Below, one piece after another: positions 11,727 to 25,900 of a stretch of DNA of 64,000 nucleotides. This stretch comes from a virus. The stretch spans positions 1-64,000 of IMG/VR virus record IMGVR_UViG_3300022927_000008; one strand, 5' to 3'. The translations under genes were made by a program, and so were the position numbers. Below the pieces are notes generated by a model. It ran no database searches. It was not told the DNA's origin and was given only the letters and a program-made list of their open reading frames with translations. Numbering within the stretch: position 1 is the first letter of the stretch; each line of letters opens with the position of its first letter.

Positions 11727-11743
11727 TATTTATAAATATTTAA

Positions 11744-17712: not shown

Positions 17713-18546
17713 TTACGCTGCAAACTCCTTTGCAACGTCGTAAAGTTCTTGGTTAACCTTCAAGTCCTGCTTGAAGTTCTTGATTCGGCGAGCTTTGCGG
17801 AGCTTAACACCACTCACATACTCAAAGTCACCTTCAATAACCTTTTCTTGAACGACATTAAACACGTTCCAAAGGTCATCACCCGCATCCTCTTTACGGA
17901 CTGGGGCCAAGATCGCATCAAGATCAATCTTGTAAACATCTTCGATTTTTTGTCCTTCTTGGACTTTAAATCGAGTCGCAAGCGCCTTACGAGCAAGATC
18001 GTACTTTTGCTCATTAGTAAGTTTGGTTTGCTTGAACTTATTCATGCTCTCAACAGTCAAGGGCAACTGCTCAACCATTTCGGTCATGGTTTCACGGAGG
18101 GTTTCAAAATCATAACCCATGTGGCGAATTTTCATTCGACCAAACTCTTGGTCGGCAATAACCAAACCATTAGAGCAAACCAAGCGATACATACCTGCTT
18201 GGAAGGTAAACGAATTTTTACCATCGTGAGAATTCGTAAGGATGATTTGGGGATAAACCGTATCACCATCATTACCTTCAACAACAATATCTGTGTTGCG
18301 GAAAGTAATCATATGCTTTTGAGTACCCTTGGTATGGGACTTACGAGCATTAACTTGTTGGGCACTAACAACACCCCATCCAAGTTTTTCCATATCTTCA
18401 ATCACTCGGAAAGTGGGGATGTGAGTGTAATGTGCTGAAACCTCCTTGCTGGGTTTCTCGGTAAATGCTGTAGGGCAATTTTTGCGAATTTGCTCTTGGC
18501 TCAAGAACTCCATGTTCTCTTCGTAGGTGGTCATCAAATCTTCCAT
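17713..18546 (-). CDS. DUF932/DUF945 family protein
   Basis: YTHIPT..; IILTNSHDG.NSF.FQAGMYRLVCSNGL..IRH; D...DLWNVFNVVQE. Confidence 0.85.
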   Translation of the reverse strand: MEDLMTTYEENMEFLSQEQIRKNCPTAFTEKPSKEVSAHYTHIPTFRVIEDMEKLGWGVVSAQQVNARKSHTKGTQKHMITFRNTDIVVEGNDGDTVYPQIILTNSHDGKNSFTFQAGMYRLVCSNGLVIADQEFGRMKIRHMGYDFETLRETMTEMVEQLPLTVESMNKFKQTKLTNEQKYDLARKALATRFKVQEGQKIEDVYKIDLDAILAPVRKEDAGDDLWNVFNVVQEKVIEGDFEYVSGVKLRKARRIKNFKQDLKVNQELYDVAKEFAA

Positions 18547-19713: not shown

Positions 19714-20382
19714 TTAATTATCTACATCTATTACTCCCCCTCCTCTCCATTTTCCTCGTTTAATGGATACACCCCCCTCACCATACATTTTAGTTACAGA
19801 CCAATCACCAGGTAAAGTTTTTACTTGTTTTTGTATGTAAGCTAAGTAAAATCTACCACGTCGGTTATCCATTCCCTTTTCTTCACCTTCACCAGCTTTT
19901 GGTACTATATCAAGTTGCTTAACAGGAATAGGGGTTTTATCTGCTTGTTCAATAAAATCACGAACACATTGTACTACAGTAGCTAATACTCTATATTGTT
20001 CTTGGAAATTGGTTTCTTCTTCTTGTCCAAACTCTACATCAAATGATACATTATAAGAACTATCAAATGTTACTTCTTTTGGACCAGCATTTTTTTCTCC
20101 TCCAAGTGCCCTTCTTAGACCTCGACTGTAGTACTCATCACTAACTTTAACCCACCCCATAAAGTTTACTTTATATTTATAGCCCTTATCATTTTCAAAA
20201 TTATAAAAAAACGATAAATCGGCTGTCCACGGTTTATTATCATCACCAGGGTGTTTTTTACCAATGTTAGCTAAACGGCTAAGCTCGATAGTAACGGTAG
20301 GTTTAGAACTTAGAGGGAACGGTTTGGCAGTTCCCTCACCAACCTCACTTAGTATCTCCGTATATACCTCGTATAGCTTCAA
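19714..20382 (-). CDS. putative head-internal protein
   Basis: N-terminus MKLYEVYTEILSE resembles capsid-targeting peptides. Confidence 0.55.
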   Translation of the reverse strand: MKLYEVYTEILSEVGEGTAKPFPLSSKPTVTIELSRLANIGKKHPGDDNKPWTADLSFFYNFENDKGYKYKVNFMGWVKVSDEYYSRGLRRALGGEKNAGPKEVTFDSSYNVSFDVEFGQEEETNFQEQYRVLATVVQCVRDFIEQADKTPIPVKQLDIVPKAGEGEEKGMDNRRGRFYLAYIQKQVKTLPGDWSVTKMYGEGGVSIKRGKWRGGGVIDVDN

Positions 20383-20832: not shown

Positions 20833-22482
20833 TCATTTGGTGGCTAAAATATCTGCAACTTTTTGCTTCATACTACTAACAGCAGTAGACCATGACTCTT
20901 CCTGATTATCTACGTTTTGAGGTTGACGACCTATACTAGAAGAATTTAACCATCTACGAATAGCAATGATACGTTCGGCTTCAATATCCTCGTTTTTATT
21001 TTTTTCTGCATTTTGGATGTACTCGGATTTAGCCTTTTTATACCAAGCATCGTGTGTCCATCTTAATACTTCAACTTGGCCTCCTAATCGTCCTTCGGTA
21101 TTGCCTGTAGTATAATAGAGGTTTACATTGACTCCAATGGTTTCGGGTAAACTAATAAAATATTCGGCTTGTTTTACCGCTTCATTAAAAGTCATATCTT
21201 CTTCAATTTCATAACGAGAATCATGTACAAACTTACCACCTTGCTTATCCGTACTCATAGTACGTACTTTAAAGACAAAAACGTGAGGATATTTAGTATA
21301 TGTATCAAGCCCTTGGGTAAAAGTTTGGATTGGTCCTTCTTCTAAATTTTTTTTAACCAAGTCATCCGCAGCATACATTCCTTTACCACCGGGGCCACCT
21401 TTAACAGGGAATACTACTTCTTTACCACCCGCATCTAATCTATTAGATTTCATAAATTTACCGGGGCCCGTAATAGTCATAGGGAGTTTTTCACCCCCTT
21501 TAGCATTTTTAAAGTAAACAGTATCACCCTCTTTAAACTTGAGTTGATCATCGGCATATTTTTGCTTTTCATCAAGTGGCCCCTCTTTTAAATCATACTC
21601 ATTAGCAGCAGCAGAAATTGCATTATAAGCATCAAGAACGTTAGTGCTAGGATTAATATTAACCCCAAACTTATTTGCTTGACTTAAAAGATCCTTATAT
21701 TTCTCATACTTGCCAGGATATTCGGTAAAAAATTGGATAGCATTCCAATCTCCTTTAATACCAGTAGCTTTAGCATAGCCTAAAGAACCTAATGTGCTAG
21801 TATCAAGTTTAAGGGGAATAATAGCTTGGAACATATTTTTAATACCACGCAATGGGTTTCTCTCAGCGTTTGATTCTCCCAAGAAGGCTCCTAAAACGAC
21901 ATCATTCTCATGTAGATCCGTATATCCTTCCACCTCACTCTCTAACCTACTACGTACCTCCCTTATCTTACCAAAGAGAGCATCTTGTTCGTCTCTCCAA
22001 TCCTGTTCGTATTCAATCTCGTCGGCATAATCAAGTTCCTTATCGGTTGGATCGTAGTACCCTTCCTCAAAATTACGATCGGAGCTACCACCGGGTTCAC
22101 TAGCTTTAAAGCCGGCATCCTTGATTTTAGCCATGTGCATGTCCATGTATTCTTTGGCTTTTTTACGCACGCCTAATTTGTCGGCAATGTTGAGGATTTC
22201 GGTGTATAACCGTGTTACATCGTCATTATATTCATCAACTGTGATTCCCATAGAACCCAGTGCTTTGCGCTCTAAATTGAAGAAATTACGGTGTTTTATA
22301 GCGAAGTTCAATACGGTAGGGGCGGTTCTGCTGAATCCCTGGTGGACAATAGCTTGGTTTTGGACCAATTTATGAGCGCTGGGACATATATCGGAGAAGT
22401 TAAATGTTTCACCCATGATGGTGAAATCGGGCATAGTAGTATTCTCGGATAAAAATTTTCTAAAGTTATTTAACTCTTTCAT
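20833..22482 (-). CDS. MKEL-leader protein 6, modular (putative head-internal polyprotein)
   Basis: MKELNNFRKFLSE; internal NFEE/DLKE/PLDE/NLEE junctions; SH3/KOW-like FKEGDTVYFK segment. Confidence 0.7.
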   Translation of the reverse strand: MKELNNFRKFLSENTTMPDFTIMGETFNFSDICPSAHKLVQNQAIVHQGFSRTAPTVLNFAIKHRNFFNLERKALGSMGITVDEYNDDVTRLYTEILNIADKLGVRKKAKEYMDMHMAKIKDAGFKASEPGGSSDRNFEEGYYDPTDKELDYADEIEYEQDWRDEQDALFGKIREVRSRLESEVEGYTDLHENDVVLGAFLGESNAERNPLRGIKNMFQAIIPLKLDTSTLGSLGYAKATGIKGDWNAIQFFTEYPGKYEKYKDLLSQANKFGVNINPSTNVLDAYNAISAAANEYDLKEGPLDEKQKYADDQLKFKEGDTVYFKNAKGGEKLPMTITGPGKFMKSNRLDAGGKEVVFPVKGGPGGKGMYAADDLVKKNLEEGPIQTFTQGLDTYTKYPHVFVFKVRTMSTDKQGGKFVHDSRYEIEEDMTFNEAVKQAEYFISLPETIGVNVNLYYTTGNTEGRLGGQVEVLRWTHDAWYKKAKSEYIQNAEKNKNEDIEAERIIAIRRWLNSSSIGRQPQNVDNQEESWSTAVSSMKQKVADILATK

Positions 22483-22498
22483 GTTGTTTTATATGTTC

Positions 22499-22999
22499 TT
22501 ATTTTATATATGTAAATAAATTCCCATTTTTAATTTCATAAGTATAGGTTTTATTATTTTCTTCATATGAAACTAAACCACCCATTTCTTCAACGGCTTT
22601 TTTTATAACTTCTTCTACAATACGGGCGTTACCTGCAGCTATTAAACCTACTGTAATAGGGTCATTAGGGGTTTTCCCTCTTTGTTTCCTTTTAGTGTCT
22701 TTTTTTAAAGCTACCTCCCAATCATCTAATACCATTTTTGTTACATTAAAGGGAGTGGGGGTGACCATCCATATATTATGTTTTATAGTATCTGTAAGTT
22801 CACGCCATGTTTCTTTATTAGCACCTGCCCCATTCATTGAGTGGCTTAGGTTTTTTGCTATAGATAGGAGTTCTTGTTTTTTAGAGTTTTTTTTAAAAGG
22901 CCCAAAAAATTCTTGAATTGATTCCCTAGCAACTGATCTATTCCTAGTAAACGCTGGGGATTCATTAAGGAACTTTCTAAATGCTTTTAGTTCTTTCAT
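22499..22999 (-). CDS. MKEL-leader protein 5
   Basis: MKELKAFRKFLNE. Confidence 0.75.
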   Translation of the reverse strand: MKELKAFRKFLNESPAFTRNRSVARESIQEFFGPFKKNSKKQELLSIAKNLSHSMNGAGANKETWRELTDTIKHNIWMVTPTPFNVTKMVLDDWEVALKKDTKRKQRGKTPNDPITVGLIAAGNARIVEEVIKKAVEEMGGLVSYEENNKTYTYEIKNGNLFTYIK

Positions 23000-23023
23000 G
23001 TTGTTTTATTTTTCAAGCTTTAT

Positions 23024-23383
23024 TTAACCCCCACTATACCATTTGTCCCTTTTCCACAAAATGTCTTTATACTGAACCAATGGATGATTATAATATTCGT
23101 TAGTTATTCGTTCAAACTCCTTCTTAGCTTCATCACTGTTATGATATCCGACTGTATTGACGAGTAATTCATATTTTTCTTCGGGTGTATTTGGGGATAG
23201 TTTCTCAATTTTGTCCTTATATTTTACCATAATCTCCTCTTTATTCCCTCTATCTAATAGATACCTATGTGACTTCCAAGCATCTAAATCTGCGATAATC
23301 TCTATATCTTTTTCGTTGGTTGCTATTTCTTCGTTGATTTGTTCTTCTGCGAGAAACCGTTTAAATGTATTTAATTCTTTCAT
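23024..23383 (-). CDS. MKEL-leader protein 4
   Basis: MKELNTFKRFLAEEQINEE. Confidence 0.75.
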   Translation of the reverse strand: MKELNTFKRFLAEEQINEEIATNEKDIEIIADLDAWKSHRYLLDRGNKEEIMVKYKDKIEKLSPNTPEEKYELLVNTVGYHNSDEAKKEFERITNEYYNHPLVQYKDILWKRDKWYSGG

Positions 23384-23389
23384 GGTGTT

Positions 23390-23689
23390 TTATGCGTAGT
23401 TGTCTATTCCAAAATCGGCAATGTTGCCTTTAAATAATTCTTGTTCTTCGGGGTCTAACTTTTCAAATGGAACGCTTAACTCCATTGAGTTGTAGTACTC
23501 ATATGAGTCTACATATTTGTCTTTCATATACTGGTCGGCCATTGTTTCTGCCTCCTCATTGCTGTCTGCTGCAACGTAAAGAGTTGCCTCTAATCCCTCC
23601 CTTTCGTCTTGGTATTTGACGCTATAAATGGTTTGGTCCGGAGCAATGTTTTCGGCTAGAAACTTTCTAAAGGCGTTTAATTCTTTCAT
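23390..23689 (-). CDS. MKEL-leader protein 3 (very acidic)
   Basis: MKELNAFRKFLAE. Confidence 0.75.
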   Translation of the reverse strand: MKELNAFRKFLAENIAPDQTIYSVKYQDEREGLEATLYVAADSNEEAETMADQYMKDKYVDSYEYYNSMELSVPFEKLDPEEQELFKGNIADFGIDNYA

Positions 23690-23696
23690 TTTATTA

Positions 23697-24131
23697 TTAT
23701 TTGTATACTTCTACCCCACCTTGAGGGCCTGCTACTAATTTACCATCAACAAACAAAGCCATTCCGTGGTTGGAATCACCATCTGGTTCTGAATCGTTAG
23801 CGGCTGCTTTCAATCCCTCAAAATCTCCAAATGCACCTTCGTTAAAGAAATCTTCTTCTAATTCCTTCACTAATTCTTCCTCACTGTTAGCGGTATAAAC
23901 TTCTAAATCTGAATTGTGCCAAAGTATAGCGTGGTACTTACCTGAAGGGATATCAACTTCATTGTCTAAATCTTCTTCACCGTATGTTATATCCTCAATT
24001 TTAGAAGGTGAAAATACGTATAGGGTTTTGTATCTGTCATCCTCATTAAACTTACCTGCTTTCATTCCTGCAAGGTTTTCGTTGATTTGTCCTTCTGCGA
24101 GGAATTTTCTGAATGTGTGTAATTCTTTCAT
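23697..24131 (-). CDS. MKEL-leader protein 2 (very acidic)
   Basis: MKELHTFRKFLAEGQINE. Confidence 0.75.
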   Translation of the reverse strand: MKELHTFRKFLAEGQINENLAGMKAGKFNEDDRYKTLYVFSPSKIEDITYGEEDLDNEVDIPSGKYHAILWHNSDLEVYTANSEEELVKELEEDFFNEGAFGDFEGLKAAANDSEPDGDSNHGMALFVDGKLVAGPQGGVEVYK

Positions 24132-24135
24132 TTTA

Positions 24136-24723
24136 TTAATAACTTTGGGGATAGTTACCGCTAGTAATCCAAAGTTGGACTACTGTTTCTCCATATTTGT
24201 CTATAAGATCATTAAGGTATTTAACGGCTTCCTCATCGTTATTTAAATCGTAAAGAGGGTTGCCTGGGTTCTCAATGTCTAATTCTTGCTCGTTTACCTC
24301 TTCACCTTCGTTGGTTGGTACTTCAAATGTTTCTCTGGTTTGGGTAAACAAATCATCTCCTTTAACGTAGTAGTTATATGATTGCCCCATTTCCCCGTAA
24401 GAAACTGGTCCTGTTTTCTTAACGGCGTTTTTAATGAGGATTATAGCATCAAGGTCCAATTGTGCTTCTTCTATTTCTTCCTCATCATCTGTACTGTTTC
24501 TAACGGCGTTGAGCTCCTCAACGGCCTCTTGAGTTTGGTTAACTGCGGGGGATGTTCCTTCTTCTGGGAAGAAAGCACCATCCTCCATCATGTCCATTGC
24601 TTTTTGCTGTACTGGGCCTTCACCCATAGCTTCAACGGTATCGAAGAGCTTATCGAGTGACTCTTGACCAAATTCTCCTCTATCTTCTGCGAGGAATTGT
24701 CTAAATCTTTGTAATTCTTTCAT
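24136..24723 (-). CDS. MKEL-leader protein 1 (very acidic)
   Basis: MKELQRFRQFLAE; internal EIEE, TNE, VNE. Confidence 0.75.
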   Translation of the reverse strand: MKELQRFRQFLAEDRGEFGQESLDKLFDTVEAMGEGPVQQKAMDMMEDGAFFPEEGTSPAVNQTQEAVEELNAVRNSTDDEEEIEEAQLDLDAIILIKNAVKKTGPVSYGEMGQSYNYYVKGDDLFTQTRETFEVPTNEGEEVNEQELDIENPGNPLYDLNNDEEAVKYLNDLIDKYGETVVQLWITSGNYPQSY

Positions 24724-24860
24724 TTTTTACAAATTCTGTTTGATGTGTAATTTTCTAATACGTTTGGAAGCCAAGCGTGAATTAAAAGTGCTACACCACA
24801 TGTTGTTGCGCACCACCAATGCTGAAAATAATTCATTTTAGCTTCTTGCAAATGCTTCAT
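24720..24860 (-). CDS. small DUF6356-like protein (46 aa, not in ORF track)
   Basis: MKHLQEAKMNYFQHW..ALLIHAWLPNVLENYTS; stop overlaps next ATG (ATGA). Confidence 0.55.
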   Translation of the reverse strand: MKHLQEAKMNYFQHWWCATTCGVALLIHAWLPNVLENYTSNRICKK

Positions 24861-24897: not shown

Positions 24898-24904
24898 GGA
24901 AATG

Positions 24905-25155
24905 GTGCGGGTCATGATGGGGTCATGGTGGAGAGGTATGAGATATTTGTATATACTTTTGCCCTGGGCCTATAGCTATTTACGCTCTAAAAATCACCCT
25001 ACACTACTATACCGGTATATGGCCCGTCGATGGACATCAGCGCCGGTGGGGTACATGGCCGGTACGTACGGCGTACGCCCGCCCGGGTAGGGCACCCGGC
25101 CATAGCCGGGCACCCACCCATTGATAACCCTCACCACAAAGGTCATCACCCAAAC
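24905..25155. other. GC-rich palindromic non-coding island A
   Basis: six CCGG in about 100 bp; TATACCGGTATA, GGCGTACGCC, CCCGGC-CATA-GCCGGG; ACCC-rich tail. Confidence 0.6.
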
Positions 25156-25159
25156 TTTT

Positions 25160-25900
25160 TTATCCATTCATTGGAGCTTCATAGAGGTAATTCACACGGT
25201 TGTGGAGGTTGAGGTTAAAGAACAACTTGTTCATGTTACCACCACGACGGTTCTTGCTAAAGTACAAATACCGACCACCGGTTTCGCTATCATGCTTCAA
25301 GTGACCCATGGCAGTGGCCATGTGCTTGATCCGGTTTGAACCAGCAAACGAACCACTCTTAGTGACCTGATTGATCATCATGAAACACGTATTCACCTTA
25401 CCCTTATTACGACCAAGGTTATGCTCCTCAAGCAGGTTGAGGATCTTCGTTGTCGCACCCTTAAACGTGCCACCGAACTTATCCTGAACCGCAACTGCAA
25501 CCTCCTGAAGGCTGTCAATCAACACACAATCATAACCGTCTTCGAGGACCGTCTCGAGCACCTGCATCGGACACTCATCAGCGTAATCACCCATAAACAG
25601 GATCGGCAAATCACCGAACTTGGGGAAACGCTTCACGTAACCGACCATGTCGATTGCGTTCATCTCACCTGAAATGAACAGACACTTCTTGCCTGCCTTA
25701 TTCAGATCACCGAGCACATCAAGCAACACGGTGGTTTTTCCAACACCGGGATCACCGGTAATAACAACATTAGTTCCAGGCATGAGACCATTGTCTCCGC
25801 TGAAAAACTCATCGACCTTCCGACCCGTCTTCAACGGATTGAACAGGTTAGCCTCGAAATTCAGGCTATTCATCTTGGTGGTGGTGACTTTAATTGCCAT
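25160..25900 (-). CDS. RadA/Sms-like RecA-superfamily ATPase (core only)
   Basis: Walker A GDPGVGKTT, FISGEM, Walker B LIDSLQ, QVTKSGSFAG..IKH, KNRRG (cf. RadA KNRFG). Confidence 0.8.
   Translation of the reverse strand: MAIKVTTTKMNSLNFEANLFNPLKTGRKVDEFFSGDNGLMPGTNVVITGDPGVGKTTVLLDVLGDLNKAGKKCLFISGEMNAIDMVGYVKRFPKFGDLPILFMGDYADECPMQVLETVLEDGYDCVLIDSLQEVAVAVQDKFGGTFKGATTKILNLLEEHNLGRNKGKVNTCFMMINQVTKSGSFAGSNRIKHMATAMGHLKHDSETGGRYLYFSKNRRGGNMNKLFFNLNLHNRVNYLYEAPMNG

Follow-up and report, generated by a model that had tools for sequence, protein, structure and literature searches.

Why do six consecutive genes of one phage, encoding proteins that otherwise have almost nothing in common, all begin with the same short peptide? 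The question is raised by positions 20833-24723 of the stretch of DNA analyzed here (the window: 64,000 nucleotides (nt), positions 1 to 64,000 of the IMG/VR virus record IMGVR_UViG_3300022927_000008), which is held in a contig of 109,773 bp with an estimated completeness of 74%. The contig comes from an uncultured, marine, T4-related phage, the host of which is probably a member of the Bacteroidota. The answer that we favor, with a probability of about 0.7, is that the array is a variable internal-protein locus whose members carry a T4-type capsid-targeting propeptide. By analogy with T4, the six genes probably encode proteins that are packaged in the phage head, and these may possibly be injected.

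The array consists of six consecutive open reading frames (ORFs) on the minus strand, running from 24723 to 20833 with intergenic gaps of 4-24 nt, and all six N-termini conform to the 13-residue pattern MKEL..F[RK].FL.E, which we call the leader; the remainder of each protein is referred to as its cargo or mature part:

24136-24723, minus strand: leader gene 1, 195 amino acids (aa), leader MKELQRFRQFLAE (24723-24685), isoelectric point (pI) of the mature part 4.05
23697-24131, minus strand: leader gene 2, 144 aa, leader MKELHTFRKFLAE with GQINE, a second I-x-E site, directly behind it, mature pI 4.16
23390-23689, minus strand: leader gene 3, 99 aa, leader MKELNAFRKFLAE, mature pI 4.05
23024-23383, minus strand: leader gene 4, 119 aa, leader MKELNTFKRFLAE with EQINE directly behind it, missing in L017, a close relative
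22499-22999, minus strand: leader gene 5, 166 aa, leader MKELKAFRKFLNE, mature part basic, pI 9.6
20833-22482, minus strand: leader gene 6, 549 aa, multidomain, leader MKELNNFRKFLSE

Residues M1, K2, E3, L4, F7, F10, L11 and E13 are invariant across the six, and a protein alignment revealed almost nothing else in common, apart from a 33-aa module present in genes 1 and 5 and a G/E-Q-I-N-E stretch that follows immediately on the leaders of genes 2 and 4. A preliminary description of the locus, made by reading the DNA without database searches, had reported six consecutive genes with a common start, largely divergent cargo and several very acidic proteins. The limits and the N-termini that it quoted proved exact, the divergence held save for the module and the stretch just mentioned, and the computed pI values bear out the acidity: the very acidic mature parts, which include those of genes 1-3, lie at 4.05-4.16, two others are mildly acidic (5.1 and 5.3) and only that of gene 5 is basic. 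When the whole contig was scanned in six frames with a regular expression, the leader pattern turned up at these six starts only, so chance is no explanation for the sharing of the leader. Scans against Pfam and PHROG gave no match for any of the six genes. Homologues could nonetheless be collected for two of them. Gene 3 has 21 at an expect value (E) of 1e-25 or below, with the leader kept in 17 of the 18 that were aligned, and the 38 homologues of gene 6, which have a mosaic domain content and reach 695-734 aa, include 27 with the leader pattern at the annotated first residue.

The capsid targeting sequence (CTS) of T4 reads MKTYQEFIAE; according to 1994 work, as relayed in two later sources, its residues 4 and 7 serve targeting and its residues 8 and 10 processing (PMC3012670, PMC9026906). 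The gp21 protease cuts after L/I-x-E (PMC9026906), and it is an established principle that in T-even phages a conserved CTS stands on diverse, fast-changing internal proteins (PMC3012670, PMC9026906). Residues 4-13 of the leader align without gaps with residues 1-10 of the T-even CTS, MKTY[QK]EF[IL][AT]E. When we used the first 23 aa of gene 2 as a tblastn query against 50,697 phage records, we obtained a single, weak match (E = 8), and it fell exactly on the N-terminus of a protein that is annotated in the T4-like Escherichia phage UP19 as an internal virion protein and whose gene adjoins that of the endolysin. The UP19 protein begins MKTYKEFLAESQLNEN and gene 2 reads ..LHTFRKFLAEGQINEN; the two have FLAE.Q.NEN in common, and the UP19 protein carries a second L-x-E five residues on, like many marine leaders. 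In this ungapped register, the invariant F7, F10, L11 and E13 of the leader fall on Y4, F7, I8 and E10 of T4, and the prohead-protease motif, L11-x-E13, is itself invariant.

We also looked for T4-type head machinery in the contig and in its relatives. The contig encodes a split DNA polymerase of the gp43 type, with 29-35% identity to polymerases of cyanophages and T4-like phages, as well as a GroEL-like protein, a ribonucleotide reductase and a baseplate wedge protein. G001, a contig of 158 kb with a completeness of 97%, is syntenic with it, at about 50-80% amino-acid identity, and has a head module comprising a capsid protein that matches T4 gp23 (E 1e-31), an acidic gp22-like scaffold in which 16 L/I-x-E sites occur, and a gp21-type Peptidase_S77 protease of 200 aa, encoded at 153786-154388 of G001, with the N-terminus MSQLLIE. 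This module falls in a part of G001 without counterpart in the window contig. Peptidase_S77 is encoded by 6 of the 9 leader-bearing contigs tested, the remaining three being only 26-47% complete. The gene just upstream of the protease in relatives has leader-like motifs near its N-terminus (..NFKNYLAE, ..KFENFLAEG) and lies where T4 has its core genes 67 and 68; its product may correspond to the prohead core proteins gp67 and gp68 of T4. The general form of these motifs, F..(F/Y)LAE, is seen in L035 (2019-2870), L066 (2008-3318) and G001 (154394-155497). A guess that the leader genes themselves adjoin the protease gene in some relatives was shown to be wrong.

How widely the leader occurs was determined in two ways. 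A degenerate DNA pattern accepting any codon matched 30 IMG/VR loci, in which several leader genes stand in tandem sets of two to five; together with the window, these loci encode 54 distinct leader proteins that fall into 27 unrelated cargo groups. The preliminary description had also proposed a hidden Markov model of the 13-aa leader across related genomes; a profile of the first 30 residues, run against 1.84 billion representative proteins with a cut-off of E <= 0.001, retrieved 228 protein clusters (50% identity), and the leader stood at residue 1 in 148 of the 149 cases among the profile matches listed. The commonest form is MKELYRFRQFLTEGVIKEN, with a second I-x-E five residues past the first; in many members this second site lies at 16-18, the leader being extended to 18 residues by G.I.E. 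The cargo of the profile matches has a median length of 165 aa and a median pI of 4.3, against 5.5 for the proteome of the window phage, and forms about 97 groups at 60% mutual coverage, with modules common to many of them. Among 52 leader-bearing relatives that we scanned, there was no Pfam match and one marginal PHROG match (E 0.009).

Several synonymous codons are used at invariant residues of the leader (six for L11, three for L4 and two each for F7 and F10), and no conservation extends into the DNA ahead of the leader starts, which indicates that selection acts on the leader peptide. The locus also changes by exchange of whole cargos. In L017, a relative about 95% identical in the flanks, the array has kept genes 1, 3, 5 and 6, lacks gene 4, has an extra 84-aa gene with a MEEL leader and carries a different cargo behind the leader of gene 2, the break lying just after the leader. 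In every case, the blocks of blastn identity between the two end inside or just after leaders, so the leader-coding DNA acts as a joint for cargo replacement. We regard this as an example of one short coding segment serving as recombination joint and probably also as protein address.

The operon is headed by a further small gene:

24720-24860, minus strand: small ORF, 46 aa, first gene of the operon, DUF6356 (PF19883, E 6.7e-06), its stop overlapping the start of gene 1 (ATGA); conserved in L017

Four nt before this ORF, at 24872-24865 on the coding (minus) strand, stands ATATTTAT. The preliminary description had noted a late-type motif in the operon. This motif is indeed present and is biased in strand (33 copies on the coding strand vs 8 on the other). 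About 18 start codons, many belonging to blocks of structural genes, have a copy 4-25 nt ahead of them, and in G001, too, many of the large structural-region genes have one in front. The motif is, however, not the T4 late consensus TATAAATA, which does not stand before the array and is not enriched (21 occurrences vs 13.6 expected). We conclude that ATATTTAT is a real upstream motif of this phage group and a candidate late promoter element.

The reading of the array as an internal-protein locus with a T4-type propeptide draws on the T4-type replication and head genes of the group, the gp21-type protease of the relatives, the register match with the T-even CTS, the strictly N-terminal placement of the leader in the 228 clusters, the codon evidence for selection on the peptide and the exchange of cassettes at the leaders. 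The amphipathic helix of the leader would probably dock the new protein onto the scaffolding core during prohead assembly. The gp21-type prohead protease would then probably cut after the L-x-E glutamate, E13, and also after the I-x-E (E18) where this is present, so that the mature cargo would be left inside the head beside the DNA. The six genes would constitute a variable internal-protein locus, in one operon starting at ATATTTAT, and related phages would swap cargo cassettes at the leader-coding DNA, which would act as the joint. We infer packaging, cleavage by the protease, injection and an early role in the host, for example in anti-defence; for injection and the anti-defence role of the cargo, the sole basis is the analogy with T4 IPI and IPIII. 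A T4-like CTS leader on variable cargo had already been suspected in the preliminary description, and the register match, the N-terminal position and the head genes of relatives speak for that part of it. The same description had pictured an equivalent of the T4 system; judged by its residues, the leader seems to be the known T-even CTS in a variant form and not an equivalent but separate system.

Comparison with known systems makes the resemblance more precise. As in the CTS system of T4, a short tag stands at residue 1 of otherwise unrelated proteins, has aromatic residues at both targeting positions and ends in L/I-x-E; genes for a gp21-type protease, a gp22-type scaffold and a gp23-type capsid protein are found in relatives within the phage lineage; and the cargo is non-conserved, ORFan and turns over between close relatives, as that of the T4 internal proteins does. 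Unlike in T4, the tag is three residues longer (MKE + 10), often with its second I-x-E five residues on, six genes stand in one tandem array, and the lineage is uncultured, its host probably belonging to the Bacteroidota. Nothing in the sequence of the mature parts relates them to IPI, IPII or IPIII, so that the tag is in common and the cargo is not. Gene 6, large, multidomain and furnished with a leader, recalls Alt and other large gp21-processed head proteins, since T4 loads a large enzyme by means of a cleaved N-terminal propeptide, but no ADP-ribosyltransferase or other enzyme fold was detected in it. Dar proteins resemble our case in that an N-terminal signal suffices for head loading, and their cargo counters host restriction after injection; unlike the leader proteins, they have no common consensus and no L-x-E leader, and they belong to a different head assembly system. 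Ejection proteins of phiKZ-like jumbo phages and of SPN3US (PMC9026906) are also head-internal proteins, cut by gp21-related proteases after glutamate at a short motif, with redundant propeptide sites, although these phages use S/A-x-E motifs, have no single common N-terminal tag and are not T4-core phages.

Several observations weigh against our interpretation. The UP19 match, at E = 8, is persuasive only through where it lands. The T4 internal proteins are small and highly basic, whereas the cargo here is mostly acidic. Genes for Peptidase_S77, scaffold and gp23/capsid were not found in the 74%-complete window contig, so the link to head machinery rests on relatives. The phage lineage is uncultured, and neither the array nor the leader has a cultured relative in the phage collection, whether searched at the DNA or at the protein level. 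Finally, the two leader genes of G001 follow a gene with an early-type promoter, TTCGTATAT, without an exact ATATTTAT, which means that late expression is not general.

Other explanations were considered. The proteins could be loaded into the prohead without being delivered effectors, as accessory core or scaffold parts or as acidic fillers that tune assembly or DNA packing, and could then be degraded or kept without a role in the next host. We think this unlikely. The strongly acidic cargo (median pI 4.3 against 5.5) would suit such a role, as would the facts that acidic scaffold fragments and head-size core proteins of T4 are gp21 substrates too and that genes adjoining the protease in relatives carry similar motifs. 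Nevertheless, gene content differs between relatives that are 95% identical, a behavior that one typically sees in adaptive accessory genes but not in parts of the assembly apparatus, and several cargos appear, in predicted models, to be compact folded domains or large multidomain proteins.

A still less probable alternative, which we would retain only as an outside chance, concerns the destination itself: the leader could be a docking helix for another place or partner, such as the phage GroEL, the tail or baseplate, the membrane or a host target, and be left uncut by the head protease. The phage does encode a GroEL-like chaperonin, and the operon begins with a small membrane-type ORF, with a lipoprotein gene coming after, but the tag has no signal-peptide character and matches the CTS at the functional positions, and its L-x-E end, often doubled, is the signature of gp21-type processing. 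Least credible, in our view, is that the conserved start matters mainly as nucleic acid, whether for translation or regulation or as a recombination joint for ORFan shuffling, and encodes a peptide that has no targeting role. Although cassette breakpoints coincide with the leader, and short conserved cassettes are known to mediate shuffling in the hyperplastic regions of T4-type phages (PMC2839356), this idea has to contend with the varied synonymous codons at invariant residues, with the lack of conservation in the upstream DNA and with a peptide that ends in L-x-E, matches the T-even CTS and is almost always N-terminal. Each of these explanations is partly supported, and each fits the data less well than a T4-type capsid-targeting propeptide on a variable internal-protein locus.

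What the cargo might do was approached through structure prediction, which the preliminary description had proposed for the proteins without their leaders. Two models were obtained, for genes 3 and 6, and neither gave an informative fold match. In the AlphaFold2 (AF2) model of gene 3 (predicted local distance difference test (pLDDT) score 85), a compact beta-beta-alpha-beta-beta domain follows a linker, and leader residues 2-13 form a separate low-confidence helix, detached from the domain. Fold comparison with this model gave a best Z of 6.3 and no informative match; the small phage inhibitors T7 Gp2, AcrIE2 and phi29 p56 were considered and set aside, as their Z values of 3-4.7 are too weak. 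The AF2 model of gene 6 (pLDDT 69) had no significant Foldseek match in the PDB, where only small beta-barrel look-alikes appeared, and its best BFVD row is not credible (E 9.7e-4, probability 0.16, TM below 0.1). For gene 1, there was no usable match in the protein atlas. The acidic nature of the cargo is compatible with roles as inhibitor or DNA mimic, and also with a role inside the head.

The CTS principle is known from T-even phages; what is new is its setting in a distant, uncultured marine lineage, with a slightly longer tag, often two predicted cut sites and a large, mostly acidic cargo repertoire. Should the tag function as its T4 counterpart does, the capsid-targeting principle would reach well beyond enterobacterial phages, the head-packaged, probably injected proteins of an uncultured marine lineage could be listed from sequence alone, and the list of 228 clusters would be a focused place to seek new anti-defence proteins against the immune systems of Bacteroidota. 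More speculatively, and we would hold this only tentatively, the leader could be the sequence-searchable address of an "injectome" of several hundred mostly acidic ORFans that act in first-response counter-defence, for example as DNA mimics or enzyme inhibitors, and are swapped between phages by recombination at the leader DNA; if true, this would concern the uncultured marine T4-related phages of Bacteroidota.

Other arrangements of leader and cargo were also observed. Single ORFs with two leader-cargo units in frame occur in L031 (724-2076) and in proteins P0063, P0064 and P0065, with another complete leader at residue 88-204; cleavage at the internal L-x-E sites, should it occur, would split each fusion into two cargo proteins. 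In another marine phage type (L046-L063, e.g., L046 8001-9731), which has a giant primase-polymerase-like gene with terminase and portal genes nearby, proteins P0034-P0038 begin MSFLDE, MKLKDILNE or MNKLTE, all ending in L-x-E. The MSFLDE proteins and the gene 6 family have a short segment in common (13% of gene 6, about 90% identical), a similarity that suggests module exchange between phage lineages using different leaders.

Downstream of the array lies one more gene that deserves mention here:

19714-20382, minus strand: possible seventh cargo gene, 222 aa, TTG start, beginning MKLYEVYTEILSE|VGEG, a different leader type

The homologues of this ORF begin MKL..(I/L)L.E and continue with (V/I)GEGT.KP(F/Y), and we regard it as a possible seventh cargo gene, on weaker evidence than for the six. 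N-termini in the family (proteins P0212-P0226) read MKLYEVYTEIL(N/S)E, MNLSDIISE or MKLTDILNE, each followed by the conserved (V/I)GEGT(A/S)KP(F/Y), and they may represent a second leader type with its own cut-site context.

Two upstream elements recur along the window. The form (A/T)ATATTTATA lies 4-35 nt upstream of many starts, many of them in structural blocks, with a strand ratio of 33 vs 8 here and 39 vs 17 in G001; examples on the minus strand are at 11739, 14201, 16660, 19714, 34190, 45028, 55966 and 61484, and in G001 it is found throughout. We regard it as a candidate for the late promoter of the group, one that would leave very short untranslated leaders. The other element, TT(T/C)CGTATATTCATGG, is itself preceded by GTCAT boxes and stands ahead of many small genes in the variable regions (minus strand, at about 25960, 26290, 28500, 29085, 29515, 46980 and 51730) and is probably an early promoter type.

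Between the gene for a RecA-like ATPase and the leader operon, there is a GC-rich stretch of about 260 nt (24900-25160, minus strand), with a GC content well above the 33-38% of the background, which gave no credible Rfam match and no significant fold energy (z -1.67), and is conserved in L017 (6131-6441). This ATPase, a 246-aa RecA/KaiC-like P-loop protein (25160-25900), and a DUF932 protein (17713-18546) flank the variable region in the window. Both genes are kept in G001 at different relative positions, which indicates that the stretch from 17 to 52 kb has been rearranged between relatives.

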